From contig CP012986.1 of NCBI GenBank assembly GCA_001761425.1, positions 360,001 through 392,000 on the forward strand: DNA of 32,000 nt. Reading direction: 5' to 3'. Source of the stretch: Candidatus Saccharimonadota bacterium. GTDB lineage: Archaea > Nanohalarchaeota > Nanosalinia > Nanosalinales > Nanosalinaceae. This document shows positions 1-25,388 of this stretch, one piece after another. The stretch's first letter is position 1; each line of letters opens with the position of its first letter. The notes beneath the pieces were generated by a model. It saw only the letters and a list, made by a program, of their open reading frames with translations, made no database searches and had not been told where the DNA came from. The position numbers and the translations under genes are program-made.

Positions 1-287
1 GTAACGGAAGGTCGAGGGTGGCGATAGTCGATAACAGCAATAATATCGCTTTGGTGAACAATCAGGGAGAGAAGGAGTTACTAACGGAGGATGGGGAAGC
101 CAGCAAGACCAGTATCTCAGTTATAGATCTGGACGATGACGGAGACATGGAAATAGCTTACGTTCCAAAATCAGGTGATAGAGGAATTTACTATGTCGAT
201 GACATCTTAGGTCAAAATCAGATAGCGGAGCTAAGTTCGGGGGCCAAACCGGCGACGGAAGTCGGGCTTACAGGTAGAATCCGGTAA
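1..287 (+). CDS. C-terminal fragment of a DxDxDG / FG-GAP-like repeat surface protein; its 5' end lies upstream of the window
   Basis: Frame 3 is open from the window edge, with no stop before the GTG at 18. The tail contains ISVIDLDDDGDMEIAYVPKSGDRGIYYVDD, the same blade motif repeated in the 930-aa ORF at 680..3472. Confidence 0.6.
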   Translation, partial: NGRSRVAIVDNSNNIALVNNQGEKELLTEDGEASKTSISVIDLDDDGDMEIAYVPKSGDRGIYYVDDILGQNQIAELSSGAKPATEVGLTGRIR

Positions 288-294
288 AAGATTT

Positions 295-714
295 ATGAGA
301 AGGGCAAATAGTTCAGTAAAAGGTCAGACATCTATAGAATTCTTCCTGCTTTTTGGAATGGCTATGGCTATTATGACAGTCCTCTTCGCCGCTATACAAA
401 CCAAAGAATCAGATGTGATGAGTCTTCAGAACCAGAAAACAGCAGCACAAATTGGTGAAAAAGTCGGTAAGCATGTCGAAAAAGCCTTGGCGGAGGGAAA
501 AGGCTATTCACGGAAATTCCGCGTCCCGGACCGGATAGCCGGCAGCAAGTACAATCTGACTGTAACTAACAAGACCGTAGTTGTAAGGTGGGGCGGCGGC
601 ATCGCTACAGCAGATACTATCTATTCAGGAGAGAAACTGAAACTTTCAACAAGGAGTACAAACCTGTACAAAGTGATACATGACGAAAAAGGTGTCAAAT
701 TCGTTGAGAGATAA
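295..714 (+). CDS. Pilin-like protein with archaeal class III (prepilin-type) signal peptide
   Basis: N-terminus is MRRANSSVKG|QTSIEFFLLFGMAMAIMTVLFAAI: a basic leader, a KG|Q cleavage-type motif, then a hydrophobic helix. It is the first gene of an overlapping co-directional operon. Confidence 0.7.
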   Translation: MRRANSSVKGQTSIEFFLLFGMAMAIMTVLFAAIQTKESDVMSLQNQKTAAQIGEKVGKHVEKALAEGKGYSRKFRVPDRIAGSKYNLTVTNKTVVVRWGGGIATADTIYSGEKLKLSTRSTNLYKVIHDEKGVKFVER

Positions 715-3472
715 AGGCCAGGCATTCCTGACTGATTTTGCTCTGAGCATGGCGATATTCGGGATAATCATCTCAGCGTTTTTCGTTCCCTGGAACATGA
801 TGATCGAGACCGAAAACAGGTTCTCCCATTCCGACGATATGAAGGCTAAGGCAGAGAGAACGGTATCAATCATGGTCACCTCGCCAGGATATCCGGAAGA
901 CTGGGAACAAAATCTCTCCGAGCCGGCTATCCTAGGATTATCTACGCAGAAAGAAAATGTAATCTCTATGGAAAAACTGGAGGCCTTTTCAAACCTCAGC
1001 AACGCACAAAAAACCTCCGTACTGAACTCAAGAGGATTTTCTCTCAACTTCAGATATCCTGAAAACTCGGAGGTCATAAAGTACAGTGACTCAGAAGTCC
1101 TGGGCACAGAATTTCTGGGAAAAGAGCCTATCGCATATATCGCACGAGGAGGCTCAACCTTCTCCTCGCTGGAGATGCTGGAAGAGTTAAACTCGTCCAC
1201 GAAGGAATGGTATTTCTACTTCCCTTCGGAGGAGAACCAGGATGATATAGACTCCCTGACAGCGGAGAAAACATATACTAACGAGGGATCTGGGCCCAAA
1301 ATGTTCCAGAGAATGATCAGTGACGCTGCCAACAGAGGATTCCAGAGGTTCAAGACAGGAAGTAAAATAAAGGCCTCTCTCTCGATCTCCGAAGTCTTTG
1401 AGGTTGACAACGATGGAAACAAGGGGATATTTTTCAGGGATCAGGACGGAAAACTGAAACTTCACAACCTTGAAAACAGCATGACAGAAGAGATAGATCC
1501 TGTAAACGAAGTTACCAGGATGGGAGCCGTCGAGAACTTCACCTCAGAGGAAGAAGAACTAGCTTTTATCAACGGAGACAGCAAATTAAATTTCTACAGT
1601 TTAGAAGACAACGAGGTCATAGAAACATCTATCGGGGCTGTAGACATCGGTGATTCTACCACTATTTCCGGTGACAAGGCCTTATTCTTCATAGATGACG
1701 ATAATTCTCTTTCATACTATATCAGAGGGAGAGGAAGTTTTGAGACATCTTTCAGCGGATCCAGGGTAGGAGGTGCTGGGGACATCGATGGAGACGACGT
1801 CTCCGAGATCGCGTTCCGGGATGAGGATGACAAACTCGCATTCTATGATCCCGAGACTGAGACGAAGCAGCCGACAGATCAAGGCGTTAAAGATGTAGGA
1901 TGGATCCATGAAAGATCTGTCGCAGTAGTCTCAGGCAACAACGAAAATCTGGGAGTCTGGAACTCTACGGACTCCTCATTTGAAAACTATCGGACAAAGG
2001 CGGGAGCTGTCACAGATTTCAGGAGGCACAGAGGAGACAGTTCAATTTTCTACATCGACCGGCAGATTGATCAAGATCTAGCCCGGTTCAATCCCGGGAC
2101 AGGGTTGACCGAATATCTGAGAGAAGGATCAGAAGAAAGTATCAAGGCCTTTGGAGGAGGCTGGGAAGTAAAACCAGATCAGACAGAAAGTTTAATCTCT
2201 TATAGGGACGCAAGCGGTTACCTGAGTTTCTACTCGGTTCAGAAAGGTTTTACCATGAGAAGCCAGGTCAAGGCCCAGGATATAGGCGGAGGAGGAGATC
2301 TGGATAGTGATGGAAACAATGAATTGGCCCTGATGGATTCGAACGGTTACCTAGGTTACTATGACTTCCAGGACGCCAGTAAAGTAATGCTAGAGGATTC
2401 AGGGTCACGCATTGCCTCAGGCCTTGTAGGGATGCCTGCTGACCTGGAAGGTGATAACACATCTGAGATACCTTATAGAACAGTTGATGACCTACTGGCA
2501 TATTATGATGTAGAGGAGGAAGAAGTAACAGTGATAAACTCAATAGGATCAATTGAGGATCTGGGGGACTCGAAAGACATAGATAGAGACGGGAACACAG
2601 AGATTCTCTACACCAAGAACGGAGAACTGAGATATTACGACCCTGTATCGGAGGAAAACACCGGAACCAACAGATTAGCCTCCGGTCTTGGAGGAGCAGC
2701 TGACCTGACAGGAAATCCTCAAAAAGAGATAATGTATAAAGATGATAATCAGTACCTCTCACATATCAATCCATCAAACTTTTTGAAAACTCAGGAGGCG
2801 CCCAAGATCACAAACGCTGGGTCTCTCACACAGCTGGGAGGGGACGAAAGCTTCTACGGTATAGTCATCGATGAGAACAATGAATTCGGTTACTTTGATT
2901 TCTCGATGAACCTGACATACAATACTATAATAGCCGAGAATGCGGAGGTGGAGGCCGATGAGGTTCGTAACGATGCAAGGCTGAGAGAAGCGGTGGAGAA
3001 AGGTATGACTTATTTACATACAAGAAACGATCCCAGCATCCTCACAAAAATATTTAATATGGACTCCCAGGATCCTGGCAGCAACAAAGCCAAGGTCCAG
3101 AAAGTCGAACCGCTCTTGAACCCCGAACTCTCCAGAGGAGAGGAAATCAGTTTTGAAAACGTCCAGACAGGATTTGAACGTACCAACACAGTTTTCGCAA
3201 ACTCCACACAGCCTCCGAACTCCTGTCTTGCCTGTAAAAAAACAGTTGGTGAAGGAAAAGTATATTACCTCGCAGACACTGATATCGGAAAGAAGAAGGC
3301 CTCATTAGCCGACCCCGAAACTGAGGTACAAGAGGAAAATGTCTCAAAACTGAAGATTGGGAAAGAAATCCCGGAAGAAGCCGAGAACGTCGTAAAAGCT
3401 GACAGATATGTAACCATCAAACATTCAGATGGCTTTGAAAACGCGGAGATCAATTACCTATTATGGAAATGA
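680..3472 (+). CDS. Large pilin-like-anchored repeat protein (candidate Ca-binding beta-propeller adhesin)
   Basis: The 930-aa ORF has the N-terminus RDKG|QAFLTDFALSMAIFGIIISAFF (class III signal-like). About 12 blades of roughly 42-47 aa follow, with motifs such as GDIDGDDVSEIAFRDEDDKLAFYD, GDLDSDGNNELALMDSNGYLGYYD and KDIDRDGNTEILYTKNGELRYYD. It overlaps the upstream gene by 35 nt and the downstream gene by 10 nt. Confidence 0.85.
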   Translation: MTKKVSNSLRDKGQAFLTDFALSMAIFGIIISAFFVPWNMMIETENRFSHSDDMKAKAERTVSIMVTSPGYPEDWEQNLSEPAILGLSTQKENVISMEKLEAFSNLSNAQKTSVLNSRGFSLNFRYPENSEVIKYSDSEVLGTEFLGKEPIAYIARGGSTFSSLEMLEELNSSTKEWYFYFPSEENQDDIDSLTAEKTYTNEGSGPKMFQRMISDAANRGFQRFKTGSKIKASLSISEVFEVDNDGNKGIFFRDQDGKLKLHNLENSMTEEIDPVNEVTRMGAVENFTSEEEELAFINGDSKLNFYSLEDNEVIETSIGAVDIGDSTTISGDKALFFIDDDNSLSYYIRGRGSFETSFSGSRVGGAGDIDGDDVSEIAFRDEDDKLAFYDPETETKQPTDQGVKDVGWIHERSVAVVSGNNENLGVWNSTDSSFENYRTKAGAVTDFRRHRGDSSIFYIDRQIDQDLARFNPGTGLTEYLREGSEESIKAFGGGWEVKPDQTESLISYRDASGYLSFYSVQKGFTMRSQVKAQDIGGGGDLDSDGNNELALMDSNGYLGYYDFQDASKVMLEDSGSRIASGLVGMPADLEGDNTSEIPYRTVDDLLAYYDVEEEEVTVINSIGSIEDLGDSKDIDRDGNTEILYTKNGELRYYDPVSEENTGTNRLASGLGGAADLTGNPQKEIMYKDDNQYLSHINPSNFLKTQEAPKITNAGSLTQLGGDESFYGIVIDENNEFGYFDFSMNLTYNTIIAENAEVEADEVRNDARLREAVEKGMTYLHTRNDPSILTKIFNMDSQDPGSNKAKVQKVEPLLNPELSRGEEISFENVQTGFERTNTVFANSTQPPNSCLACKKTVGEGKVYYLADTDIGKKKASLADPETEVQEENVSKLKIGKEIPEEAENVVKADRYVTIKHSDGFENAEINYLLWK
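1391..2910 (+). repeat. Tandem protein-level repeats (about 12 FG-GAP/integrin-alpha-like blades with DxDxDG loops) inside the 930-aa ORF
   Basis: A recurring pattern is read directly from the translation: G-(G/D)-x-x-D-(I/L)-D-x-D-G-x-x-E-(I/L)-x-(F/Y)-x-x-x-x-x-x-L-x-(F/Y)-Y-D. The repeats are diverged at nucleotide level. Confidence 0.6.
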
Positions 3473-3987
3473 GAAAGGGCTTTTATTTCTCAATGGATGC
3501 CGTGGTAGCCCTCGTGATAATGTCGGCAGCACTGACCCTGGTGATCCAGCTCTCTAACTCAGCTACAGGGGAGTTCCAGACAGACTCGTCCAGATACGCC
3601 GAGGCCACAGACAGAGGTAAGGATATCATCAAAATTGCCTCGGCAGAAAAGCTGAGCTCTCTTGAACAAAGCCAGACCCCGGAATTAACTCCTACAGTCG
3701 ATCCATCAAAGTTTAACGGCTCCGTACTCGATGCTGTAAACCTTCTCTGGGAGACCAATAATAAAACAAAGGCCTCAGACCTTGTCAAAATGTATTTTAC
3801 ACCGATGGTACCAAAAGATTACGAGTACAAGGTTATACTGGAGGGAAACGAAGTCGTATACAGGAGTTCCACTCTAGAAGACCCTCCACAGATAGTTACA
3901 AGCTCGACGACACTGACATATGTTCCTGAAAGGCCTGAAACCGTAGATCCGAAAAACATAAGACTGGTGATGTGGCGTGAAAAATAA
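3463..3987 (+). CDS. Pilin-like protein with class III signal peptide
   Basis: N-terminus is MEMRKG|FYFSMDAVVALVIMSAALTLVIQ. The start overlaps the upstream stop by 10 nt, consistent with translational coupling. Confidence 0.7.
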   Translation: MEMRKGFYFSMDAVVALVIMSAALTLVIQLSNSATGEFQTDSSRYAEATDRGKDIIKIASAEKLSSLEQSQTPELTPTVDPSKFNGSVLDAVNLLWETNNKTKASDLVKMYFTPMVPKDYEYKVILEGNEVVYRSSTLEDPPQIVTSSTTLTYVPERPETVDPKNIRLVMWREK

Positions 3988-5203
3988 GGGAATGGTCTAT
4001 ACGACCTTTGCTATAGTCGCTACAAATCTGCTTTTACTACTTTTCCTGACCACTTCAGGATCGAATGATTATACATCAAGCGTACAGATCAGAGAAGGAG
4101 AGGCCTCTCATTACCAACAGAGTGTAGAGGACTTTACAGGCAAGACCCATGAAATAGCTTTGAAGACTGCCAGCTCGGCTGTTATCAATCACACCTTGAG
4201 ACAAGGAGAAGGTATACAAGACGGGGAAGAGACCTTAGAGGCCCTTTTGATCAATGGAACCAGCGACGAAATAGATCGTCTCTTCAGGTACGCCTCGCTC
4301 AACAAATGGAGGGAAGACGTCAGCGAATCAGCGGAAGACAGAGGATATACACTATCTATAAAGTTCAATAAAAGGTCCCTGGACGATAGCTTCCTGAGTA
4401 TGACAGGTAATCTGACCTCGAGAATAGAGCTTGAGGCCCCTCAGACATCCTCGAGGTTCAATAAAACAGTAAGATATGAAAACCAGGTAAGCCTAGTAGG
4501 ACTTGAGGATACGATGCTGTTCTCAAGATCTGATGAAACTTACCGAAATAAATACAGACGATGTAGTTTCCGAAAACCGGCAGAAAAAATTACAGACGGC
4601 ACAGTCTCGAATCAAGGGGCAACTTTTGGAAAAGCAACCCGAAATAAAGACTCAGGGAACAAAGAAGAGAAGATCCTAGTGACAGATGGAGAACCGAACT
4701 CATCAAGAGCGAATGCCTATGCCGGAACCGTCGCATCATCGAATGAAGACCCAGAATACAAAAACACAAAATACATATTTGGAGCGGAAACAGCAGATAT
4801 AGAAGAAGGAGAGGATCTCATACTGTACCGAGATCAGGTCTGGAGCTCAAGAATCCGGCAGATAATCAACACAGGATGTTACCTGAAATCGAACGTAACA
4901 GGAGAAACCGGTCCAGGCCTGATGGAAAGAATGGAAAACAAGCTCCAGGCCCAGGAGAACGAAACAGAAGGCCTCCTCACGATTATAGATAAGAAACGTC
5001 TTCCAGAAGAGCTTCAATACCCCGGAAGATCCAGCATAGGTTACAAGTATTTTAGAAGTGATGAAGGTAAGAAAATAGCAGGCCTCACAGGAAACAAATC
5101 ATTCGACAAAAACAGAGACGGATACAGAGAGGACTTCCGACTCGATGAACAACATATTGAGAAATGGAATCTAAACACACCGGACGGAGGCCTAACATAC
5201 TGA
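3977..5203 (+). CDS. Pilin-like N-terminus protein, 408 aa, otherwise unassigned
   Basis: A GTG start gives MKNKG|MVYTTFAIVATNLLLLLFL. It overlaps the upstream gene by 11 nt and is the last gene of the + strand operon. Confidence 0.65.
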   Translation: MKNKGMVYTTFAIVATNLLLLLFLTTSGSNDYTSSVQIREGEASHYQQSVEDFTGKTHEIALKTASSAVINHTLRQGEGIQDGEETLEALLINGTSDEIDRLFRYASLNKWREDVSESAEDRGYTLSIKFNKRSLDDSFLSMTGNLTSRIELEAPQTSSRFNKTVRYENQVSLVGLEDTMLFSRSDETYRNKYRRCSFRKPAEKITDGTVSNQGATFGKATRNKDSGNKEEKILVTDGEPNSSRANAYAGTVASSNEDPEYKNTKYIFGAETADIEEGEDLILYRDQVWSSRIRQIINTGCYLKSNVTGETGPGLMERMENKLQAQENETEGLLTIIDKKRLPEELQYPGRSSIGYKYFRSDEGKKIAGLTGNKSFDKNRDGYREDFRLDEQHIEKWNLNTPDGGLTY

Positions 5204-5248
5204 AGAACTTAATCATCATAACTCCGCAGCTTTAATAGCTCGTCTTAT

Positions 5249-5275
5249 GATAAAGAGAAAAAAGGAGAAAAAGTG
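5249..5275 (-). terminator. Oligo-T tract terminator downstream of the pilin gene
   Basis: The minus strand reads CACTTTTTCTCCTTTTTTCTCTTTATC just after the pilin stop (5290..5292). Archaeal termination at T-runs is established. Confidence 0.35.
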
Positions 5276-5289
5276 TTAGACTCAACTTT

Positions 5290-5763
5290 CTAGCTGAGAG
5301 AGATACTGTCAGTCATTGTACCTGAAACAACTTGGCTCTGAATTCCATCTTCTACGTTGTACTGGATGGAGAGATCGAAGTCGTTACATCCATCTACAGA
5401 AGTTGCTCCAACGTCTGTTGTGAAGGTTGCGCTTGATCCTACTGAAATTGTTTCGTTTCCAGCATCATAGCTGTCTCCTTCAACTGAGATGTTGTCTATC
5501 TCTACAGGACTTGCTGCGGCATTCCTTAGCTCAAAAGCTAAGTTTCCATCAGAGTTTGTAGCAAAGTCTGCTACACGTACATCTGATGTTGAGAATCCTG
5601 ATGTGGATGTGGTACATTGACCCTGGACGGTTGCGAAGATTGCTCCTCCGACAATTGCTACAACAAGTAGCATCCATCCGTAGGTCATTAGGTACTCGAT
5701 TGCTGACTGACCTTTTCGCTTTGCGAATACGTCAAAATTCTGCGTCATAGTTGGTTTGGTCAC
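5290..5763 (-). CDS. Candidate major type IV pilin (class III signal peptide family)
   Basis: N-terminus FAKRKG|QSAIEYLMTYGWMLLVVAIVGGAIF is the classic archaeal class III signal motif (KGQSAIEYL). The product is small (157 aa), S/T/D-rich and has its own promoter and terminator. The start may be the GTG at 5763 or the ATG at 5748. Confidence 0.85.
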   Translation of the reverse strand: MTKPTMTQNFDVFAKRKGQSAIEYLMTYGWMLLVVAIVGGAIFATVQGQCTTSTSGFSTSDVRVADFATNSDGNLAFELRNAAASPVEIDNISVEGDSYDAGNETISVGSSATFTTDVGATSVDGCNDFDLSIQYNVEDGIQSQVVSGTMTDSISLS

Positions 5764-5789
5764 CCAATCAAGAACTAATTTGTTTGAGT

Positions 5790-5802
5790 CCTATAAAAAA
5801 CC
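5790..5802 (-). promoter_or_regulatory. TATA-box-like element for the pilin gene
   Basis: The minus strand reads GGTTTTTTATAGG, centred about 31 nt upstream of the GTG at 5763. Confidence 0.4.
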
Positions 5803-5886
5803 TTTTGAGTTAAGGCCTCTTCGTGTTTGTTTTCGATATATCTGGGTGTCGGTGTTGTTATGAAAAGATTCTAAGTCCTGTGTTTT

Positions 5887-6888
5887 TCATCCCATGGCTC
5901 CTGAAATTGCTCCCTGCACTCCTAGGAATAGTAGTATGGAGATTATAATGAATACTGGTACGTATTTGACTCCCTGTTTGATGTTGCCGTTGCTGATTTC
6001 CGAGATGATGAGGGCTGCGAACAAGTTGATTGATACGATCGCTAGAAGGGCGAATTCCTCGAATAGTGCTACATCAACATTGGGTGATGAGAAGGACATG
6101 TCGAATCCTACCTGGCTTCCTATACCTCCCATTCCTCCGCCTCCAGCGTCCTGCATGCTTCCGATATCTGCCTCGCTCCACATACTGGTGGTCTCCCGTG
6201 CCATATAGACGCTGATTGAGAACAGGACTGGTGCCCCTCCGACCGCTGCCATCATGATGAATATCTGATACATCCTGATAGATGATTTGATCTCATCCCT
6301 GATCTCCAGACTGTTCCTTATATCATCCGCGGAGGAATCCAGAAGCGCAGCTGTGTCTCCACCGGACTCTATACCATCTCTCAGCAGTTTCAGGGTTTCC
6401 TGGAAGAGCTCAGATTTCATCCTGTCCTCCAGGCTCTGCAGCGACTCCTCTACAGGCTCACCGCCATACATCTCCATGGCGGTCGCCCTCATCTCATCTG
6501 CCAGAGGCCCGAACTCATCTCTCGCAGACAGAAGAAAGGCCTTTTCCAGGGTGTGCCCTGACTTAATATTCGCTGATACAAGCCTCATAGCGTCGGGAAG
6601 TATTGATTCGATCTCTTTCTTTCTCCGCTCCGCTACGATCGAAATATACATGTAAGGAGTTACAGGTCCGGCAACAAGAGAAGCTACCAGGGCTACAACA
6701 GCTTTAGCCAAGGGATCGAAAGGTGCAAACATCATTACGATGCCCAGGGTAACTACAAAGCCAAACAGAGAACCGTAGAGAGTATATTTCTCCACTTCAT
6801 CTTCCATCGAAGCGTATAAGGCCTCCTGCTCCATCTTGTTCCTGTAGCGGGCAGGTATCAGCTCGTAGATATTCTTCTGGCTTATCAC
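5887..6888 (-). CDS. T2SSF-domain pilus/archaellum platform membrane protein (TadC/PilC/FlaJ-like)
   Basis: Contains the motif LPDAMRLVSANIKSGHTLEKAFLLSA followed by GDTAALLDSSADDIRN, plus flanking TM segments. The GTG start overlaps the upstream stop as GTGA (6885..6888). Confidence 0.8.
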   Translation of the reverse strand: MISQKNIYELIPARYRNKMEQEALYASMEDEVEKYTLYGSLFGFVVTLGIVMMFAPFDPLAKAVVALVASLVAGPVTPYMYISIVAERRKKEIESILPDAMRLVSANIKSGHTLEKAFLLSARDEFGPLADEMRATAMEMYGGEPVEESLQSLEDRMKSELFQETLKLLRDGIESGGDTAALLDSSADDIRNSLEIRDEIKSSIRMYQIFIMMAAVGGAPVLFSISVYMARETTSMWSEADIGSMQDAGGGGMGGIGSQVGFDMSFSSPNVDVALFEEFALLAIVSINLFAALIISEISNGNIKQGVKYVPVFIIISILLFLGVQGAISGAMG

Positions 6889-7742
6889 GCTGCCTTCACC
6901 TCCGGCCTCTTGGACTTAACCAGATTCAGGAAAAAGGCCTGGAAAAGTGCTAGACCTCCGAGTATACCGTAAAACGTCATCTGGTTGAGAGGAAGTTCAA
7001 CGAATGAAGACATAACTATCATCAGAGTGACTCCAAGGCTCGGAAAGATGACCGCAAGCATCAGGTACATCAGGATGAACGGGTTCAGGTCCTCACCGTA
7101 TTTCTCAACCTCCAGTTTCTGTTCCTCGACCATGGTATCTACTAGGGAATCAAGAGTATCGGTCAGGTCTGCACCCGATTTCAGGGCATTGATCATCTGC
7201 CACATAGCCCTGCGGTACATAATGCTCGGGTTCCGTGCGATAGAATCCTCCAGGGCCTTTATCTGAGACTTACCTCCCTGTATATCCGAGACGATCCTGT
7301 TAAACTCACTGGAGGCCTCACCGTAATCGTACGAAGCATCAACCATCGCCTCGTAAAGCGAAATACCTGAACTTACCTCGATAAGCATGTGGCGCAAGGC
7401 ATAAGGCAGATTCTTCTCCAGCTGGCGTGAGACACGCTTTGCTTTAACCTTGGGCTGGTAGGCAAATGTCAGGAAAAGAAGAGGCGTGAAAAGCGGTAAA
7501 AGGCCTATGCCAAGTTTCATTATGAACACTTGATCAATGATGTATCCGGCGAACCCTATTGAAGCTGCTAGAGAAACTCCTATCTGTAAAGCTCTGGCTA
7601 GAGCATTGGCTATGTACGTATCGGGGTCTTCATCCATCCTCGCTCCTCTCAAGTCCTTCTCAATGGATGGAACTGCCGGTTTCAGCTTCTCCGCTGCCGG
7701 CAGAAAATACTTCAGGTATTTCTCGGATACAGTAGTATCCAT
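6885..7742 (-). CDS. T2SSF-domain platform membrane protein (TadB-like)
   Basis: Contains the motifs LPYALRHMLIEVSSGISLYEAMVDAS and GADLTDTLDSLVDTMVEEQ, with TM segments at both ends. Confidence 0.8.
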   Translation of the reverse strand: MDTTVSEKYLKYFLPAAEKLKPAVPSIEKDLRGARMDEDPDTYIANALARALQIGVSLAASIGFAGYIIDQVFIMKLGIGLLPLFTPLLFLTFAYQPKVKAKRVSRQLEKNLPYALRHMLIEVSSGISLYEAMVDASYDYGEASSEFNRIVSDIQGGKSQIKALEDSIARNPSIMYRRAMWQMINALKSGADLTDTLDSLVDTMVEEQKLEVEKYGEDLNPFILMYLMLAVIFPSLGVTLMIVMSSFVELPLNQMTFYGILGGLALFQAFFLNLVKSKRPEVKAA

Positions 7743-7800
7743 CTATAATTCATAACGGCTTTCCGAAATAAAAAGAGTCAGCAAAGAGAAAAACCAGGAA

Positions 7801-8466
7801 TCATTCCTGCATCAGAGTCCTGTCTATACGGCCGACCTCTGGGCCTGTCGTGTTCTCGCTTGTCAAAATACCTGTGTCGGTAGCTACAAGACCTGAACCG
7901 ATATACGGCGAACCCATGTCAACAGTACCGATATCCGCATCATTAACTCCCAAGGCCTCCATAACTTTTTCTGCATCATCTTCACCGGTCTCCCTGTGAA
8001 GCAATACTCCGTTCGAGTTGGCCTCGGCACATACGCCAATGTTTTTGATACCTGCGATACGTGAAACAGTGACATCTACATCTAAGGCCTCAGCGATTTC
8101 TTCCCTGTGTTCCTCTATCTTCTCGCTGATAACCGCGCCGTGATCGTTCGCAAGAATCAAATTACCGAGAGCATTGTCGTTAGTTTCGATAACCTGAAAA
8201 TCTATACCTGCTTCTTCCAGTTTCTTTTTCTCTCTGGAGGTGGCACCTTTTGGGATAAGAATACAGTTAGAGTTACCTGCTGTGAAAAGGCCTACAAGTC
8301 TTGTCCTGTTGATAAACGTTTCAGCGGATTTTTCTACATCGAAAAGTTCTTTTTTCTCCTCCTTGAACTCTGGAGGATAAACTGCCTGGGTGCTGGTTAA
8401 GGTGGCGTAGAACCCGATGCTGCTGTTTCCCAGGTAATCGTATCTCTGTATCTCCATCTGGATCAC
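7801..8466 (-). CDS. eif6: Translation initiation factor 6 (aIF6)
   Basis: The N-terminus YDYLGNSSIGFYATLTS and the repeated pentein-like segments (GNLILANDHGAVIS, GVCAEANSNGVLL, GSGLVATDTGIL) are typical of eIF6. The start is the GTG at 8466 or the ATG at 8457. Confidence 0.9.
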   Translation of the reverse strand: MIQMEIQRYDYLGNSSIGFYATLTSTQAVYPPEFKEEKKELFDVEKSAETFINRTRLVGLFTAGNSNCILIPKGATSREKKKLEEAGIDFQVIETNDNALGNLILANDHGAVISEKIEEHREEIAEALDVDVTVSRIAGIKNIGVCAEANSNGVLLHRETGEDDAEKVMEALGVNDADIGTVDMGSPYIGSGLVATDTGILTSENTTGPEVGRIDRTLMQE

Positions 8467-14451: not shown

Positions 14452-14859
14452 ATGAGTGTAGAGTCTTATCTTGAGAAAAAAGATTACGGTTTTATCGTTG
14501 CTGGAGGAGTTTTAACTGTTTTAGCTGCCTTAGTTACACCGAGGGTTTTTTCGGATCCGATGCAGATAGAGACTTATTCAAGGCTGATAGTTGCAGCATT
14601 CATACTCTATGGTCTGTTTTCTATCCATAAAGCAATTCAGTCATGGGCTGGCGAGCTGGCAAGATATCTTCAGCTCATAGGTACAGGCCTCGCGATTTTG
14701 ATGATCGCATGGATTCCTCATATCGGATGGCATGTTAGAGGTAATCCGGAGTGGTTTGGAATGTCTCCGATTTCCTGGATAACAGTATTCCATGGACTCA
14801 CCATTTTGGCTTTCGCTGTATCGGCCTACGGGTTCCACCTGTTCTGGAAGAAGGCCTGA
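14452..14859 (+). CDS. Paralog P1 of an unassigned 4-TM membrane protein family
   Basis: Shares IHKAIQSWAGELARYLQLIGTGLAILMIAWIPHIGWH ... VFHGL ... AYGFHLFW with ORFs at 15325, 15763, 16861 and 17259. A TATA-like CTTTATCA lies 27 nt upstream of the ATG. Confidence 0.8.
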   Translation: MSVESYLEKKDYGFIVAGGVLTVLAALVTPRVFSDPMQIETYSRLIVAAFILYGLFSIHKAIQSWAGELARYLQLIGTGLAILMIAWIPHIGWHVRGNPEWFGMSPISWITVFHGLTILAFAVSAYGFHLFWKKA

Positions 14860-14874
14860 GATATACTGGTAACG

Positions 14875-15258
14875 ATGAAAGGTGATGAAACGAAAATGAC
14901 AGAAGGTTTGGACGACAACAATGAGTTTTACCTTGATTTGATGAAGGACCTGGTAGAGGACCAGAAGAAGATGCTTGGAGAACAGGTAGCCCTCCAGAAG
15001 GCAAGAGGAACACCACTGGAGATGGATAAAGACGGAGATATAACAGGTTATTACGGAAAGGGAGAGGATGTACTGGAAACGATTTTGCGGAAATACGGTG
15101 AAGTGTGGGGTGATGCTGTTGCCCGAAGAAAGATGAGAAGGACGGTAAGCAAGAATATTTCTGAGGAGAACTACGAGCAACTGCCTGATTATATGAGGCC
15201 TAAAGATGATCAGAAAGGAGTGATAGGTTCAATAGTCCAGCAGATCAAAGGGGAATAG
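14875..15258 (+). CDS. Paralog S1 of an unassigned acidic soluble protein family (one S domain)
   Basis: NEFYLDLMKDLVEDQKKMLGEQVALQKARGTPLEMDKDGDITGYYGKGEDVLETILRKYGEVWGDAVA aligns with both halves of the ORF at 16253. It starts 15 nt after the P1 stop, with no promoter-like element between them. Confidence 0.8.
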   Translation: MKGDETKMTEGLDDNNEFYLDLMKDLVEDQKKMLGEQVALQKARGTPLEMDKDGDITGYYGKGEDVLETILRKYGEVWGDAVARRKMRRTVSKNISEENYEQLPDYMRPKDDQKGVIGSIVQQIKGE

Positions 15259-15324
15259 CTGTCTCCGGTTCTGAAAAACTTTTTTATGTTCGAACACTGT
15301 ATCATAATTAGGTGGATTTGAAGT

Positions 15325-15762
15325 TTGAATCTCAATAGTCAGGATTATGGAATTATCGGTGGCGGAATCCTTCTTTCATTTCTAGGAGCTTTCGCCACAG
15401 AAGCAGGAATCATAAACGCGTCTCTGGCAGGAACAATCACTACATGGCTTCCAAGGATTACAGTACTAACAATCCTTGTAGGCATTGTGTTTGTCTATCT
15501 GTCAAGGGACCTGCTCGGTGGAGAGATCGTACAGAATCTCGAAGTCGTAGCTACAGGATTCCTGATCTATGCCGTGACCTGGTGGCCTCACAAGATGGGT
15601 TACCACGCAGAGGCCTTAGGAGGAGCAGCATCAAGCATCTTCGGAGTTTTCACAACAGGTGCATGGAACGTGTTCTTCCACACGCTCACGGCAGCAGTAT
15701 TTGGCCTTGTCTCCTTCGGTTTCTACCGGTTCTGGGAGATGAGCCAGGAGGTGAACGCATAA
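15325..15762 (+). CDS. Paralog P2 of the 4-TM family (TTG start)
   Basis: Contains YLSRDLLGGEIVQNLEVVATGFLIYAVTWWPHKMGYH ... FFHTL ... SFGFYRFW. The N-terminus MNLNSQDYGIIGGG aligns with the paralog N-termini only if TTG 15325 is used. An AGGTGG Shine-Dalgarno-like motif lies 9 nt upstream. Confidence 0.7.
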   Translation: MNLNSQDYGIIGGGILLSFLGAFATEAGIINASLAGTITTWLPRITVLTILVGIVFVYLSRDLLGGEIVQNLEVVATGFLIYAVTWWPHKMGYHAEALGGAASSIFGVFTTGAWNVFFHTLTAAVFGLVSFGFYRFWEMSQEVNA

Positions 15763-16152
15763 ATGAGGCATAGCGACAAACTTGTCGTAGCAGGGGTACT
15801 TGCATTCTCAGTACTGGCAGGCCTGTGGGCACAGTTCATGGGTCTGGAACCAGCAGCGGACGCATTCATCGACTTCCTCACATTTGCAGCAGTAGCAGGA
15901 GGCCTTGTCTTCATTTACGAGGCAAGGGATGAACTGGGCGGAGAAACAGCAAGAAACCTGGAGATTCTGGGTATAGGACTACTGGTATTCGTCCTGGCCT
16001 ACTGGCCTTCCTACACATGGAGTACAGTCGGCAGTCCAGAGTGGTTAGGCATGACAACAGGCTTCTGGAGCATGTTGTTCGGCCTGGCCAACTTCGTAGG
16101 CCTTGCAATCGTAACCTACGCGTTCTACACCTTCTGGGAAATGGCTCAGTAA
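15763..16152 (+). CDS. Paralog P3 of the 4-TM family (lacks the conserved histidines)
   Basis: Contains IYEARDELGGETARNLEILGIGLLVFVLAYWPSYTWS ... LFGLA ... TYAFYTFW. Its ATG directly abuts the P2 stop (TAAATG). Confidence 0.8.
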   Translation: MRHSDKLVVAGVLAFSVLAGLWAQFMGLEPAADAFIDFLTFAAVAGGLVFIYEARDELGGETARNLEILGIGLLVFVLAYWPSYTWSTVGSPEWLGMTTGFWSMLFGLANFVGLAIVTYAFYTFWEMAQ

Positions 16153-16170
16153 AGTATAGGCCTTCAATCC

Positions 16171-16194
16171 CTTTTTCTTTCTCTTTTTTCTCTT
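16171..16194 (+). terminator. Oligo-T terminator after P3
   Basis: CTTTTTCTTTCTCTTTTTTCTCTT begins about 20 nt after the P3 stop. Confidence 0.4.
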
Positions 16195-16252
16195 GAATCT
16201 GGTCCCGTCTTATCCGAAGTAAACAAAAAGACTGATACAGAAGTCTAATAGT

Positions 16253-16858
16253 ATGCCGGATGAGGAAGGTGATCCAGAGGATGAGGACAGGCAGGAATAC
16301 TACATTGAATCTATCCAGAATATAATTGATAAACAGAAAGAACAGCTGGGAGAGGAAACAGCTATAAAATGGGCTCGTAGAGCGCCTATAAGGATAGATG
16401 CAGAGGGAGAAGTCCAGGGTTTCTATGGAACGGGAGAAGACGCGCTCGAAACCCTCAGAGACTACACAGAACACGAGGAATTTTACCTTGACGCTATAAG
16501 TTCTGTTATAGACACAATGTGCTCTTTCATGGGAGATGATGTAGGCCTCAAATACGCGAGAAAAGCACCGCTCCAGATAATGCCTGATGGAGAGGTCAAG
16601 GCCTATTACGGTACAGGAAGAAAGGCACTGACTATACTCGTGAAAAACTACGAGGACTACATGGGTAAGGCAGTCGCCGACCAGAAGATAAAAGGCGCCT
16701 TCTCAGATGTTGAGGATGAAGAACTTGATCTCGTACCGGAAGACGTAAGGCCTCAAAGCAGTGAGGAGAAAGGTTCTTCGGAAGGCCTTATCAGCAGGAT
16801 TTTCGGTATCGGAGGCTTTGTTTTATATTCTAGTCAGGATATTCCATTACCTGGATAG
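16253..16858 (+). CDS. Paralog S2 of the acidic soluble family (two tandem S domains)
   Basis: Domain a is QEYYIESIQNIIDKQKEQLGEETAIKWARRAPIRIDAEGEVQGFYGTGEDALETL. Domain b is EEFYLDAISSVIDTMCSFMGDDVGLKYARKAPLQIMPDGEVKAYYGTGRKALTIL. The tail LVPEDVRPQ...GLISRIFGIGGF parallels the S1 tail QLPDYMRPK...GVIGSIVQQI. Confidence 0.8.
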   Translation: MPDEEGDPEDEDRQEYYIESIQNIIDKQKEQLGEETAIKWARRAPIRIDAEGEVQGFYGTGEDALETLRDYTEHEEFYLDAISSVIDTMCSFMGDDVGLKYARKAPLQIMPDGEVKAYYGTGRKALTILVKNYEDYMGKAVADQKIKGAFSDVEDEELDLVPEDVRPQSSEEKGSSEGLISRIFGIGGFVLYSSQDIPLPG

Positions 16859-16860
16859 AC

Positions 16861-17262
16861 ATGGCTAAACATACACAGAGAGATTGGATTATCGGCGCAG
16901 GAGGCCTTGCATTCGTCCTAGTGCTGTCAGTTCTTTCACATCTATTACAGTTCCCAGGGATTATTGAAATCCTGGGAGATATCGTGACAGCGATCTTCGG
17001 CTTTGTAGCGGTTTACTTCATCTACAAAGCTACGGATATGCTAGGCGGAGATGTGGCAAGATATATCTCCATCATGGGTATAGGCCTTGCCTACTACTCC
17101 CTGACACTGGTGCCTCACGTTTACGGGCATCTTTCAGGTATCCACATGATAGGACCTGTCAACACAGCTTCAGTTTACCTCTGGCAGCACATAGCCAGTA
17201 TATGGGTGTTCATCATGATCAGTTACGGACTATACCTGTTCTGGAAAGGTGGTAAACAGTGA
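16861..17262 (+). CDS. Paralog P4 of the 4-TM family
   Basis: Contains IYKATDMLGGDVARYISIMGIGLAYYSLTLVPHVYGH ... WQHIA ... SYGLYLFW. It starts 2 nt after the S2 stop. Confidence 0.8.
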   Translation: MAKHTQRDWIIGAGGLAFVLVLSVLSHLLQFPGIIEILGDIVTAIFGFVAVYFIYKATDMLGGDVARYISIMGIGLAYYSLTLVPHVYGHLSGIHMIGPVNTASVYLWQHIASIWVFIMISYGLYLFWKGGKQ

Positions 17263-17684
17263 GCCTTATAGCCAACCTGGAGAAGAAGGACAAGTACCTC
17301 ATCGGAACAGGAGTAGCTCTAGGCCTGATCGCAGCAGTTATAGGACAGCTAGGAATCCTCGGAATGAAAGCGGAAATGATGCTCACCTATCTGATGGTAG
17401 CACCTATCCTTCCCGGTATCTACTTCCTTTACAAGGCAAGAAGCCTCTGGGGAGGAGATATCGCAAGATACCTGGACTTCATAGGCGCAGGCCTCATCAT
17501 CAACCTGGTTCTATTCCCTGTTCACATGAACTGGCACTTCGCAGCTCAAAGTGCTGAAGCAGCATTCCTTTCATGGGGAATCAGTCCAAGCTTCTGGTAC
17601 ATGTTCTTCCACGGACTGGCAGGATACTCCTTTGCAATGCTTGCATACGGATTCTACCTGTTCTACCAATCAGGCGCCGAATAA
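17259..17684 (+). CDS. Paralog P5 of the 4-TM family
   Basis: Contains LYKARSLWGGDIARYLDFIGAGLIINLVLFPVHMNWH ... FFHGL ... AYGFYLFY. Its GTG start overlaps the P4 stop as GTGA. Confidence 0.8.
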   Translation: MSLIANLEKKDKYLIGTGVALGLIAAVIGQLGILGMKAEMMLTYLMVAPILPGIYFLYKARSLWGGDIARYLDFIGAGLIINLVLFPVHMNWHFAAQSAEAAFLSWGISPSFWYMFFHGLAGYSFAMLAYGFYLFYQSGAE

Positions 17685-20151: not shown

Positions 20152-21173
20152 CTAGTTTTTCTCCCCCGTTTCAGATCCAGCAGAGCCAGGTAACCCAGAA
20201 GAAGGCCTGGCCAGTAAGTTGTCAACCTGAAGAGCACTGATGCTGCTACAGCAGTAGCAGCCGTTATTGTCTCAGGGAAGAAAGCGAGCAGTAGGCCCGA
20301 GAATGCTGCCTCGAACGTGCCTGAACCTCCCGGAGTTGGCGAAAACATTGCGATCGCTGCCAGTACCACGGTAAAGTAAATTCCTACGAAGTGAGGATTC
20401 AATCCAAGGCCTACAAGGATGAAATACAGTGAAAGAAGCTGTACGACCGGAGCGATATGAGTTACTAAAGTTACCTTGAGAAGATGCCGCCTGTCCTCAC
20501 CGGCTTTCTGAAAGGCCTTCCTTGTCTCTGTTATCCTCTCTTTCAAAGGAGGAACGACTTTTTCCGTATATTTTATCTTGTCTCCTACGTAATCAAGTGC
20601 TTCATGGATTTTAGCCTCTACTTTATCGGTTTTGAACCATGCCAGGTATGCTGTAGTTACCAGTAGAATATTCAGCAGTATTACTGCGTAGATACCTGTT
20701 TTGATGGCTTCTGTTATAGTGCTGAACAGTATTATGTAAACTATCCCTGCTGATGCGTATGTTACGAATGGTATGGCGTTTATTATGTCTGCCGACATAA
20801 CTGTGGAAAGGCTTTTCTCATAGGTGGCCTCGGTGTTACTTGAGACCACGTATGCCATGAACGGTTCACCTCCCAGCTGGCCCAGCGGTGTGATCGAGTT
20901 CATGAAGTTACCTGCCATAAACAGCTTCAGCGAGTTCATCCTGCTGGAATTGAAGCCCAGTTGCTGGAAAAAGCTGTGGTAGATATAGCCGAAGACAAGG
21001 AAAAACGACATGCCTGAGATAAACGCCAGGAACATATAGAATGGGTCGATACTCCTTATCGCCTCTACAAAGTCTCCGACATCGGCGAAATAGATCAGAC
21101 CCGCAAATATGACTGTGGTTATCCCGTACCAGAGAAATTTGCTGTCCTTAGCCTTGAAAAGCAATGACTTCAT
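20148..21173 (-). CDS. Flippase-like polytopic membrane protein (LPG_synthase_TM / UPF0104 family)
   Basis: About 8 TM segments and the family-typical loop FMAGNFMNSITPLGQLGGEPFMAYVV. Its stop overlaps the trm11 start as ATGA. Confidence 0.65.
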   Translation of the reverse strand: MKSLLFKAKDSKFLWYGITTVIFAGLIYFADVGDFVEAIRSIDPFYMFLAFISGMSFFLVFGYIYHSFFQQLGFNSSRMNSLKLFMAGNFMNSITPLGQLGGEPFMAYVVSSNTEATYEKSLSTVMSADIINAIPFVTYASAGIVYIILFSTITEAIKTGIYAVILLNILLVTTAYLAWFKTDKVEAKIHEALDYVGDKIKYTEKVVPPLKERITETRKAFQKAGEDRRHLLKVTLVTHIAPVVQLLSLYFILVGLGLNPHFVGIYFTVVLAAIAMFSPTPGGSGTFEAAFSGLLLAFFPETITAATAVAASVLFRLTTYWPGLLLGYLALLDLKRGRKTR

Positions 21174-21346
21174 CTCCTCACCTCGAAATATCTGGAACTA
21201 TGAATAATATAATGTTCCCACATATTTTTCAGATAACGTCCACAGAAACTGGGGAGCGTAAACCTTTTTTCCTCTTAACTGATGCTAAGGCCCCGACTTC
21301 GGGTAGAAGTACCAGATATTTCAAGGTTCACGGTAACTTTTTGGAT

Positions 21347-22303
21347 ATGGCAGAGAAAGTAGGGATAATCTACTGGTGCCAGGGCGCAGGACATGCCGCA
21401 AGGAGCATCCCGATCGCTCAGGAACTGGAATCCAGAGGACACGAAGTAGTTATGGACGGCGGAGGTCCAGGCCAGAGATTTGCAGAGATGAACGGATTCG
21501 GCCACGAAGACTATCACTTTTCGACAATACCTGTAATAAGCAAATCACCTGTATCAATAATCAAAAGAGGCCTCCTGGAGGTAATACCTTCCGCAGTAAA
21601 ACGTTTCAAGACCTCTGTAAGCTTCCTCAGGAACGAAGACCCTGACAAAGTCGTGACGGATGACCACACAGTTATACTCGCAGCAACACTGCTCAACTAC
21701 GATCTCTACACAGTAAACCACCTGAGGCCTCAGTTCTTCTCAGGCGCAGAAAAACTCGCAGCCCAGTTATTTGACAAATTCTCCCTGTTTAGAGGTGAAA
21801 AAATATTTTTCACAACACTCTGGAGCAATGAATCAGGAGCAAAGGACGTAGAACACGTTAATCCTCTCGCACAGGAGGGAGATGGAGAGGTAGAACCTTA
21901 TGACGTACTTCTCATACCCGGATCATTCGGAGAAAGCTTCGGGGAAGTAAGAGAACTGCTGGAGGCCGAAGGCCTTAACGTGAGGACAGTCGGAGACGAC
22001 AGCTGGGAGACAAAGGCCTCGATGACGCCTTACACGGAAGCAGCGGACTGTGTCGTATGCACAGGATTCTCATCGATTGCTGACACGGTTGTCGCTGGTA
22101 CTCCGTGCGTGGTGTTCCCGCATCTACAGATGCAGGAGCTTCTCACGAAGCAGATCGACAGCCGTGATATAAAAGGGGTTTCGACAGCTTACTCTGTAGA
22201 CGAGGCGGTAGAGAAGTCTATAGAGGTTTGTGAAGGAGATAGTGAGAGGCCTGAGTTTGACAATGGAGCTCCTGAGGTTGCAGATGTTCTCCTAGAGAAT
22301 TAG
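21347..22303 (+). CDS. GT-B fold glycosyltransferase, MurG/GT28-like (paralog 1)
   Basis: N-terminus MAEKVGIIYWCQGAGHAARSIPIAQELESRGHEV has the GxGHxxR motif. The C-terminal half reads VCTGFSSIADTVVAGTPCVVFPH. I place the start at ATG 21347 by alignment with the paralogs at 22374 and 25389 and by a TATA-like element about 28 nt upstream. The ORF-track start at 21164 would add 61 unmatched residues. Confidence 0.7.
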   Translation: MAEKVGIIYWCQGAGHAARSIPIAQELESRGHEVVMDGGGPGQRFAEMNGFGHEDYHFSTIPVISKSPVSIIKRGLLEVIPSAVKRFKTSVSFLRNEDPDKVVTDDHTVILAATLLNYDLYTVNHLRPQFFSGAEKLAAQLFDKFSLFRGEKIFFTTLWSNESGAKDVEHVNPLAQEGDGEVEPYDVLLIPGSFGESFGEVRELLEAEGLNVRTVGDDSWETKASMTPYTEAADCVVCTGFSSIADTVVAGTPCVVFPHLQMQELLTKQIDSRDIKGVSTAYSVDEAVEKSIEVCEGDSERPEFDNGAPEVADVLLEN

Positions 22304-22306
22304 GCC

Positions 22307-22340
22307 TTTTTTACAGTGTTTTTCCTGTTTTTCTCCGTTT
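22307..22340 (+). terminator. T-rich terminator after glycosyltransferase paralog 1
   Basis: TTTTTTACAGTGTTTTTCCTGTTTTTCTCCGTTT follows the TAG stop directly. Confidence 0.4.
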
Positions 22341-22373
22341 GGCTTAAAAGGATTTTATGATGTGGTTTGTTGT

Positions 22374-23321: not shown

Positions 23322-23365
23322 ATTGAAAGGACTATTTTTTAATTCACCAGGTTGGAGATATACTT

Positions 23366-24154
23366 ATGCCAAGTCTAGGAATATGGGATAAAGCAGACAT
23401 CATCGGAGAAAAACTGGCCGACAGTAAAACATTTACCAGAATAGTGGACTTTTTCTCCAGTAACTTCACAGGCATCTTCCTCGAAAAAACAGAGAACGGA
23501 TATATGAAAGAATTAGACGGTGTAGAGGTCGAGATGACACATCAGTTCCACTTCACCGATATAATAATACATAGTCCTATTGAAGGCTACACAAAAGAAT
23601 TAGACCTCGAAAACACGGACAGACTTCTTGATGCAGGAGCATTTCCAGGAGCACTGGCGATAATCGCAGCGAAAAGAGGAGCAGAAGTAATAGCACTGGA
23701 ACCAGACCCTGAAAACGCAGACCAGCTCAGGAAAAACCTGGAACTCAACAACGTACAAGAAAAAGTAGAAGTAGTAGAGGTAGGCCTGTGGAAGGAAAAA
23801 GACCAGAAAAGCTTCGAAAGAGACCAGGCCCTGGGAATGGCCTCCAGGATCAAAGAAGAAGCAGAAATAACGATACAGCTCGATACACTTGACTCAGTAA
23901 CAGAAGAACACGGAAGGCCTGACCTGGTAAAAATGGATATAGAAGGAGCAGAGACAGAAGCTCTCGAAGGCGCAGAAAAAACTTTGGAACAAACAGAACC
24001 GGACTTTGAGATCGCCACATACCACCTCGATGAAGAAGGTAACAAAACATACCATGAAATAGAGGCAAAACTTTCCGAAAAAGGCTACAACGTCAAAACA
24101 GGTTTCTCAAGGCACCTGACAACATATGCATCAAAAAACAGAGAATTCAACTAA
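23366..24154 (+). CDS. FkbM-family SAM-dependent methyltransferase
   Basis: Contains LDAGAFPGALAIIAAKRGAEVIALEPDPENADQLRKNLELNN and the FkbM signature LVKMDIEGAETEAL. Confidence 0.85.
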   Translation: MPSLGIWDKADIIGEKLADSKTFTRIVDFFSSNFTGIFLEKTENGYMKELDGVEVEMTHQFHFTDIIIHSPIEGYTKELDLENTDRLLDAGAFPGALAIIAAKRGAEVIALEPDPENADQLRKNLELNNVQEKVEVVEVGLWKEKDQKSFERDQALGMASRIKEEAEITIQLDTLDSVTEEHGRPDLVKMDIEGAETEALEGAEKTLEQTEPDFEIATYHLDEEGNKTYHEIEAKLSEKGYNVKTGFSRHLTTYASKNREFN

Positions 24155-24185
24155 AAAATAAGACGAAGAAGCGAAAAGGCCTTCT

Positions 24186-25334: not shown

Positions 25335-25354
25335 GGAGATAAACTGGAATGAAG

Positions 25355-25368: not shown

Positions 25369-25388
25369 CATCAGGAAGGACCTTCTGA

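Follow-up and report, generated by a model that had tools for sequence, protein, structure and literature searches.

A probable type IV pilus locus with a split platform and an overlapping operon of pilin-like genes in a Nanohalobium-like nanohaloarchaeon

In this study, we analyzed a stretch of 32,000 nucleotides (nt) of contig CP012986.1 (positions 360,001 to 392,000 of the forward strand, hereafter the window), whose first 7,742 nt carry an operon of pilin-like genes, a stand-alone pilin gene, and two genes for platform proteins. With a probability of about three in four, we read this region as the half of a type IV filament (pilus) system, in a Nanohalobium-like nanohaloarchaeon, that supplies its structural parts; the system would belong to the archaeal class with two half-size platform genes known as "system 1" or Epd-like. 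This reading is built on the gene content and its homologies, on leaders and a gene order that are conserved among relatives, on purifying selection, and on the linkage of the same genes to ATPase and peptidase genes in related genomes. A preliminary description of the window had proposed a type IV pilus-like locus, a proposal that is supported by most nanohaloarchaeal relatives, in which the same platform genes directly follow genes for an A24-type peptidase, for a coiled-coil protein, and for a T2SSE ATPase. Within its class, a known type of archaeal pilus, the system is ordinary; it stands out only in the placement of its adhesin domains and in its separation from the motor genes.

Genomic setting and gene content of the locus

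In JGI metagenome data, the window is part of contig Ga0136257_100001 (3300010222; 1,125,078 nt). The GC content of the window is 42-50% and its encoded proteins are acidic. The closest public genomes are metagenome-assembled genomes (MAGs) named Candidatus Nanohalobium sp. (phylum Nanohalarchaeota, DPANN), to which the N-half platform protein is 89% and 84% identical, the PPDK 92%, and the eIF6 77%. The early guess of a small-genome halophilic archaeon was correct. To collect relatives, the N-half platform protein was compared with species-representative genomes, which yielded 17 nanohaloarchaeal loci. Among them, L003 is the closest relative and served as the reference for the platform identities and for the ratios of nonsynonymous to synonymous substitution (dN/dS), while L007 and L011, relatives of ~60% identity, are the two loci that were mapped in full upstream of the platform genes. 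The pilin-like genes of the operon are called g1 to g5, and the genes of the N-half and C-half platform proteins TadC-N and TadC-C, respectively. The features of the locus are listed below, with an arrow marking the predicted cleavage site of each leader and lengths in amino acids (aa).

1 to 287, + strand: 3' end of g1; the full gene encodes 430 aa and starts ~1 kb upstream of the window (L001 8701-9993)
295 to 714, + strand: g2, 139 aa, minor-pilin-like, leader KG↓QTSIEF (Q at +1, E at +5), DUF7266 family
680 to 3472, + strand: g3, 930 aa, pilin-like, leader KG↓QAFLTD (D at +6)
1400 to 2899, + strand: run of 10-11 FG-GAP-like repeats in g3 residues 241-740, from an iterated hidden Markov model (HMM) search and a motif scan
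3463 to 3987, + strand: g4, 174 aa, pilin-like, leader KG↓FYFSMD (D at +6), core only
3977 to 5203, + strand: g5, 408 aa, pilin-like, GTG start, leader KNKG↓MVYTTF
5204 to 5289, no strand assigned: convergent spacer between g5 and the pilin gene, with minus-strand T-runs CTTTTTCTCCTTTTTTCTCTTTATC after the pilin stop
5290 to 5763, - strand: predicted major pilin, 157 aa from GTG or 152 aa from the ATG at 5748, leader ...KRKG↓QSAIEYL
5791 to 5800, - strand: TATA-like TTTTTTATAG, ~32 nt upstream of the pilin GTG, read from the sequence
5887 to 6888, - strand: C-half platform protein, 333 aa, one T2SSF domain (E 2.5e-17)
6885 to 7742, - strand: N-half platform protein, 285 aa, one T2SSF domain (E 1.5e-18)
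7743 to 7809, - strand: eIF6/platform junction, with a hairpin and a T-run after the eIF6 stop and then a TATA-like CTTTTTATTT (7775-7766), ~28 nt upstream of the platform ATG

The five pilin-like genes form a + strand operon that is divergent from a PPDK-type gene and convergent with the stand-alone pilin gene. The preliminary description had counted four genes in this operon, and its four complete + strand open reading frames (ORFs) are indeed present at the coordinates and with the N-termini it had given; the operon has, however, five genes, the first 287 nt of the window being the 3' end of g1, whose product starts MTREGYSFKG↓QSSVEF. Consecutive genes overlap by 35 nt (g2/g3), 10 nt (g3/g4), and 11 nt (g4/g5), and adjacent operon genes overlap or abut in relatives as well. 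A sigma-70 promoter scan of the window was uninformative for an archaeon.

Leader sequences

We defined a leader rule consisting of a short leader that ends in [KR][GA] and is followed by a 19-residue hydrophobic stretch, and applied it to the six-frame ORFs of the window with at least 80 aa (n = 71). The rule selects 6 of them, and five of the six lie within this locus. Every leader motif is, in addition, conserved in 12-14 orthologues from other genomes, with the following conserved leader ends and mature starts in the six families:

g1: (K/R)G↓QAAIEY
g2: KG↓QSS(L/I/M)EF
g3: (K/S)G↓Q(S/T)FMPDF
g4: (R/K)KG↓FYFSFDA
g5: (K/R)G↓(L/M/F)(V/A)YT(T/S)FA
pilin: KG↓QSAIEYLMTYGWMLLVVAIVGG, invariant

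A clustering of such leaders by chance was rejected, both because of the five of six rule-matching N-termini that fall in the locus and because the motifs are conserved across genomes. For g5, the conserved motif of the orthologues is a further argument for the GTG start. Gln at +1 and Glu at +5 are found in g1, g2, and the pilin and in nearly all of their orthologues; g3 and g4 have an Asp at +6 without Glu at +5, and g5 has no acidic residue in its first mature positions. A FlaFind-type core motif at the cleavage site, which we re-implemented, fits three of the six families, namely g1, g2, and the pilin.

Only one further N-terminus of the window is class III-like, MEKG↓ELTIPVIPVLLALILIGG; it belongs to a 189-aa ORF at 29722-30291 (- strand), for which there is no Pfam match.

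Stand-alone pilin and platform genes

The gene between the operon and the platform genes has the properties expected of a major pilin, as the preliminary description had suggested. The mature N-terminus of its product, KGQSAIEYLMTYGWMLLVVAIVGG, is invariant over 24 residues, while the C-terminal domain of ~100 aa is variable except for two invariant Cys. The pilin and g1 have only 27 N-terminal columns in common (hhalign E 8.9e-10), and the pilin profile gives weak matches in the PDB to the archaeal "flagellin" chains 8fk7_A (E 0.025) and 5z1l_A (E 0.27). The dN/dS of the pilin relative to L003 is ~0.2. Also in agreement with the preliminary description, the gene appears to be transcribed on its own: TTTTTTATAG, judged by its letters and position, is a putative TATA element, and the T-runs that follow the stop codon on the minus strand form a terminator-like signal of the archaeal kind that may end the transcript. 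As a separate observation, both the pilin (C50, C126) and g5 (C196, C301) have two invariant Cys, which may form disulfides in the extracellular domains.

The two T2SSF matches of the platform proteins pass the Pfam cutoff. The N-half protein aligns to residues 5-249 of ArlJ and 33-226 of UpsF and is 89% identical to its L003 orthologue, with a dN/dS of ~0.07, and the C-half protein aligns to residues 249-511 of ArlJ and 268-437 of UpsF and is 74% identical to its orthologue. The two proteins thus map to the N- and C-terminal halves of full-length FlaJ/UpsF, in line with the split platform proposed earlier. Their genes overlap by 4 nt (GTGA), and the split is conserved in the relatives whose loci cover both genes. 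A PDB sequence search with the platform protein gave no match.

Conservation of the locus and location of the motor genes

The order PPDK, divergent from g1 g2 g3 g4 g5, which converge with the pilin, TadC-C, and TadC-N genes, is found in at least 12 nanohaloarchaeal loci and in every locus long enough to show it. All genes of the locus have dN/dS values of 0.07-0.23 relative to L003, with synonymous sites near saturation, and these values indicate that they are maintained by purifying selection. In the metagenome matches listed, HMMs of g1, g2, g3, g5, and the pilin recognize ORFs that neighbor an ATPase homologue at 43 of the 80 loci. Many of those contigs, some of them labelled Hainich, encode an ATPase that is only 50-56% identical, and the gene set therefore seems to extend beyond the nanohaloarchaea.

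In 15 loci (L005-L019), a T2SSE ATPase is encoded upstream of the platform genes. The complete order upstream, as mapped in L007 and L011, is an A24-type peptidase, a winged-helix/coiled-coil protein, a T2SSE ATPase of ~500 aa, a small membrane protein (105 aa), and the platform; in these distant relatives, the ATPase and the 105-aa protein take the place of the junction at 7743-7809 of the window. The relative's ATPase matches PF00437 (E 9e-38), has afGspE 2oap (2e-69), FlaI (3e-60), and CpaF as its best PDB matches, and gives a weak PilB3_C match. The relatives' peptidase is a membrane protein of 268-314 aa with the motifs VFDL...VPD and WGGADA and, according to a crude hydropathy scan, 4-7 hydrophobic segments; its PF01478 match is weak (E 4.4e-5, 24.3 bits against a cutoff of 26.5).

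In the window and in the two closest relatives, eIF6 and S19e are found upstream of the platform genes instead of the motor genes. Three Nanohalobium-type genomes have the peptidase, the coiled-coil protein, and an ATPase of 690-703 aa at another site, where they are followed by L18Ae, a 136-aa protein, and FtsY. The two kinds of junction, eIF6 to TadC-N and ATPase to L18Ae, lie at 7743-7809 of the window, 5925-6016 of L100, 11668-11712 of L101, and 8876-8879 of L104, and both split a run of translation-related genes (S19e to eIF6 on one side; L18Ae, the 136-aa protein, and FtsY on the other). A single inversion in a Nanohalobium-like lineage, with breaks between ATPase and TadC-N and between L18Ae and eIF6, would yield both junctions, in which case 7743-7809 would be an inversion break point in this lineage.

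Other genes accompany the locus in relatives. A MinD-like ATPase gene follows PPDK in several of them. Just upstream of the peptidase, L007 (3844-6352) and also L011 carry a PilA-type Pilin_N gene, an archaeosortase-like gene (Exosortase_EpsH, E 1.5e-7), and a gene for a ~470-570-aa protein of no known family, the Pfam matches being those of the L007 copies; a second pilin type is thereby found beside the same motor. Among the homologues of the pilus ATPase, P0125 has 1134 aa with intein/LAGLIDADG and helix-turn-helix (HTH) Pfam domains, which suggest a T2SSE ATPase of an uncultured relative that contains an intein.

Modules carried by the pilin-like proteins

The cores of g1, g3, and g4 are small, and large modules are attached to one or another of them (g1, g3, or g4) in different genomes. 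In this genome, g1 consists of a ~140-aa core that is paralogous to g2 and of a C-terminal extension of ~290 aa, in which an iterated HMM search on g1 and g3 finds five FG-GAP-like repeats (FG-GAP_3 match: E 2.2e-7, 31.8 bits against a cutoff of 26.9); orthologues of g1 have only 135-165 aa. The paralogy with g2 covers the whole ~130-aa cores (hhalign probability 92.8% over 123 columns), and DUF7266 matches 11 of 12 g2 orthologues, with a best E of 1.9e-8.

The conserved core of g3, which is DUF7287-like, is made up of ~125 aa at the N-terminus and ~40 aa at the C-terminus, split by an insertion of ~760 aa that is specific to this genome. The orthologues have 166-211 aa, with one exception at 381 aa, and DUF7287 matches 6 of 13 of them; a literature search on DUF7266, DUF7287, and related names found no papers. 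The repeats in the insertion have a period of ~45-48 aa and the core D-[LI]-D-x-D-G-x-x-E-[IL]...[FY]-Y-D. The run is probably a Ca-binding module of the beta-propeller type, a reading drawn from the repeat sequence, since the AlphaFold2 model of g3, built from a single sequence, was unusable (pLDDT 30.8).

The reverse situation is observed for g4, which is here a 174-aa core and whose orthologues, of 626-1270 aa, have a large variable module; the N-terminal domain and the last ~12 residues of g4 align to the ends of the long orthologues. The domains found in the orthologues are VWA (5 of 14, best E 4.1e-13), GEVED (3 of 14), and reelin-like repeats (two).

The g5 family comprises 117 clusters at 50% identity among 1.84 billion representatives, and a cluster look-up found no annotation on their members. 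A profile search with g5 gave no Pfam match and no PDB sequence match. The AlphaFold2 model of g5, from an alignment of 64 sequences, has a pLDDT of 93.5 and a pTM of 0.84; in it, an N-terminal helix (5-28) leads into a longer one (31-76), after which come helical and beta parts. The long N-terminal helix of the model is typical of pilins. A Foldseek search with the model gave no match at E <= 1e-3 in PDB or BFVD.

Proposed assembly model and alternative explanations

On the model of Epd pili, bacterial type IV pili, and the type II secretion system (T2SS), the six pilin-like proteins would insert into the membrane by their N-terminal hydrophobic helix and would be cut after the conserved Gly by an A24-family class III signal peptidase. 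The two T2SSF proteins would form the platform, on which an afGspE/FlaI-like ATPase would dock. The products of g1 to g5, probably made in coupled amounts from their overlapping genes, would form a priming or tip complex, and g5, without an acidic residue near its mature N-terminus, would be placed at the very tip; beneath this complex, the separately transcribed pilin would polymerise through its invariant N-terminal helix as the filament shaft. At the tip, the large minor-pilin modules would be exposed as adhesins that bind a host cell or a surface. The inferred elements of this model are the cleavage of the leaders, the formation of a filament, the subunit order, and the adhesin role. The tip-adhesin idea, which the preliminary description had offered as an inference, keeps that standing, and the VWA and GEVED domains of the g4 orthologues and the FG-GAP-like repeats of g1 and g3 in this genome speak in its favor.

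A bolder proposal, against which we would place the odds, is that g1 to g5 are a conserved DPANN tip complex whose pilin cores serve as interchangeable scaffolds for host-recognition modules, with a g4 module in most nanohaloarchaea that is replaced here by the FG-GAP-like insertions of g1 and g3, and with g5 as a new kind of filament cap. If this were true, the identity and position of the module would set which haloarchaeal host or surface the symbiont attaches to.

Several observations weigh against a pilus system. The leaders of g3, g4, and g5 are atypical and miss the FlaFind-type core motif, and the matches to Pfam Class_IIIsignal are below threshold (E 0.0058-0.064); what stands of the class III leaders proposed in the preliminary description is the architecture, conserved in all six families, and the G↓Q(+1)...E(+5) pattern of g1, g2, and the pilin. 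The major pilin predicted here has roughly double the size of its Epd counterpart, and a Foldseek comparison of the g5 model with the PDB shows no solved minor pilin of similar fold. Domain searches of the window and ~10 kb on each side (~51 kb) found no T2SSE ATPase and no A24 peptidase, which bears out the earlier remark that neither is encoded in the window. Two protein searches with the ATPase gave none from this genome's contig among the matches listed, and the contig is not among the matches listed from a metagenome scan with the ATPase alignment either; since the FtsY positive control of the protein searches missed the same contig, this absence is uninterpretable. Finally, the cultured relative Ca. 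Nanohalobium constans LC1Nh (CP040089, L102 8051-9548) has kept the peptidase gene, with the coiled-coil and ATPase genes absent at the syntenic site, where a 155-aa ORF is all that remains between peptidase and L18Ae.

The atypical leaders, found in three of the six families, would also fit a short pseudopilus or a membrane-anchored display platform, similar to a bindosome or to the T2SS pseudopilus, built by the same machinery instead of an extended pilus; the operon proteins would then be surface adhesins or take part in DNA or nutrient uptake. FG-GAP and VWA modules could work equally well when anchored at the cell surface, DPANN pili have been proposed to serve in DNA or nutrient uptake (PMC9563170), and class III-anchored binding proteins have been proposed as well (preprint 10.64898/2026.04.22.720090). 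On the other hand, a polymerising major subunit is usually recognized by what is seen here, namely a small pilin that is transcribed separately and combines an invariant N-terminal helix with a globular domain that varies, and filaments, of a composition that was not resolved, have been seen on Ca. Nanohalobium cells (bioRxiv 10.1101/794461). We regard a pseudopilus or display platform as unlikely. The position of the motor genes suggests another explanation, in which the ATPase module was split off by the inversion and then lost, leaving an orphan remnant that makes no filament or that uses the ATPase of another pilus or archaellum locus. LC1Nh, which keeps the peptidase without the coiled-coil protein and the ATPase, would be an example of this, no ATPase of the present genome is among the matches listed, and ATPase/TadC modules and pilin sets can act in trans (Makarova et al., PMC4858521). 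Nevertheless, all eight genes of the locus are intact, with dN/dS values in the range given above and 89% identity of the platform protein, three other Nanohalobium-type genomes keep the ATPase beside L18Ae, and the FtsY control shows that the search could miss proteins of this genome; we consider such a remnant quite improbable.

That g1 to g5 are ordinary signal-anchor or secreted proteins of the Sec type, whose likeness to class III proteins is coincidental, we hold to be highly improbable. The lack of a significant Class_IIIsignal match and of the FlaFind-type motif in g3 to g5 would agree with it, but a (K/R)G junction precedes the hydrophobic stretch in every family and is conserved in 12-14 genomes, there is no lipobox Cys, and five of the six N-termini of this kind in the window cluster at the locus. 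Moreover, both in nanohaloarchaea and at metagenome loci that are more distant, they keep company with the genes of the pilin, the platform, the ATPase, and the A24 peptidase. Sec and lipoprotein signals were set aside on account of the conserved (K/R)G and the clustering of such N-termini at the locus.

Comparison with known systems

Read as a pilus system, the locus can be compared with the archaeal class defined by a pair of platform genes together with five or more minor pilins and large adhesin-like proteins, which is called clade 1 or system 1 (PMC4858521; preprint 10.64898/2026.04.22.720090) and is reported in methanogens, Thermococcales, and DPANN, the latter in the 2026 preprint (10.64898/2026.04.22.720090). 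Gln at +1 and Glu at +5 after the leader Gly are the signature of the EppA-processed pilins of Methanococcus maripaludis (PMC3875500). The Epd pilus of M. maripaludis, a system 1/clade 1 member, resembles the present system in its two platform genes, its several minor pilins in one operon with the pilin gene apart, the leader-final Gly with Gln at +1 and Glu at +5, and its large adhesin-like class III proteins. The major pilin differs, having here ~140 mature aa with a globular domain, while EpdE has ~60 aa without one; the short major pilin by which the class is also recognized (arCOG06620) has ~60-70 aa, compared with 152-157 aa here. The Epd pilus also has a dedicated peptidase, EppA (nine transmembrane segments, arCOG02300), whereas the relatives' peptidase, compared with PF01478 only, matches that family weakly. 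The minor-pilin families of our locus are DUF7266, DUF7287, and the g5 family, without established homology to EpdA-D.

The tip complexes of bacteria, PilVWX-PilY1 and GspHIJK, contain 4 or 5 co-transcribed pilin-like proteins, one of which lacks the conserved acidic residue, and large adhesion modules are associated with such sets; modular pilins, such as PilB of Streptococcus sanguinis, carry a vWA module. The operon resembles them in its number of co-transcribed pilin-like proteins, in having one without the acidic residue, and in its large adhesion modules. It differs in that no likeness in sequence or fold was detected (the g5 model has no PDB match, and there are no Pfam matches to the GspK, PilX, or PilY1 families) and in that the modules are fused into pilin cores, as opposed to a separate PilY1-like protein. 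The likeness to the PilVWX-Y1 and GspHIJK complexes and to modular pilins is one of functional analogy only.

With the PilA/PilB3-C3 and PilB4 systems of Haloferax volcanii ("system 2", euryarchaeal clade 2), the present system shares the occurrence in a halophile, the weak PilB3_C match of the relatives' ATPase, the matches of g2 and g3 to DUF7266 and DUF7287, and the MinD-like ATPase gene nearby in relatives. System 2 differs in having a single platform gene (preprint 10.64898/2026.04.22.720090) and PilA-type pilins with Pilin_N (DUF1628), which lack Gln at +1 and Glu at +5; the separate PilA-type gene of the relatives lies outside this operon. Hamm et al. 2024 (PMC11291902) describe type IV pilus-like loci that encode a CpaF ATPase, a TadC platform, and a coiled-coil protein, and that are conserved among Nanohaloarchaeota as well as other cluster-2 DPANN. 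These loci come from the same phylum, and the coiled-coil/HTH protein, ATPase, and platform genes of L005-L019 adjoin our locus. They differ in that the main text of that study names CpaF and TadC only, with no minor-pilin operon or pilin, and in that the ATPase and coiled-coil genes are not adjacent to the locus in the present genome.

The same study (PMC11291902) states that every DPANN archaeon in cultivation depends on physical contact with its host. The molecules that make this contact are largely unknown; earlier work noted the nanohaloarchaeal ATPase and platform genes, and in a study of other nanohaloarchaeal genomes the pilins could not be annotated (PMC9563170). The locus supplies candidates: a predicted major pilin, a set of five minor-pilin proteins, and VWA/FG-GAP-type modules as candidates for host specificity. 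The general picture of archaeal type IV filaments is unchanged, and the value of the locus lies in a defined list of proteins for proteomics, cryo-electron microscopy, and comparison of host ranges. Its more interesting aspects are the movable adhesin modules, a g5 protein without a known fold relative, and the lineage-specific separation from the motor, which is lost in one relative.

Other features of the window

Two further groups of paralogous genes are found in the window. At 14452-17684 (+ strand), there are five paralogous four-TM-like proteins (TM, transmembrane) of ~130-145 aa (starts at 14452, 15325, 15763, 16861, and 17259), which are 26-37% identical (E 3e-8 to 1e-22). Interleaved with them are paralogous acidic soluble proteins at 14875-15258 (127 aa) and 16253-16858 (201 aa), the latter an internal duplication of the unit that makes up the shorter protein; the three proteins tested, starting at 14452, 14875, and 16253, have no Pfam match. 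At 21164-26315, three paralogous proteins of 308-379 aa (48%, 33%, and 31% identical), of which the one at 21164-22303 has no Pfam match, flank a Methyltransf_21 gene and an RGP-like glycosyltransferase gene. With a DUF2070 membrane protein and an LPG_synthase_TM protein encoded nearby, this region of the window may be a surface-glycan island.

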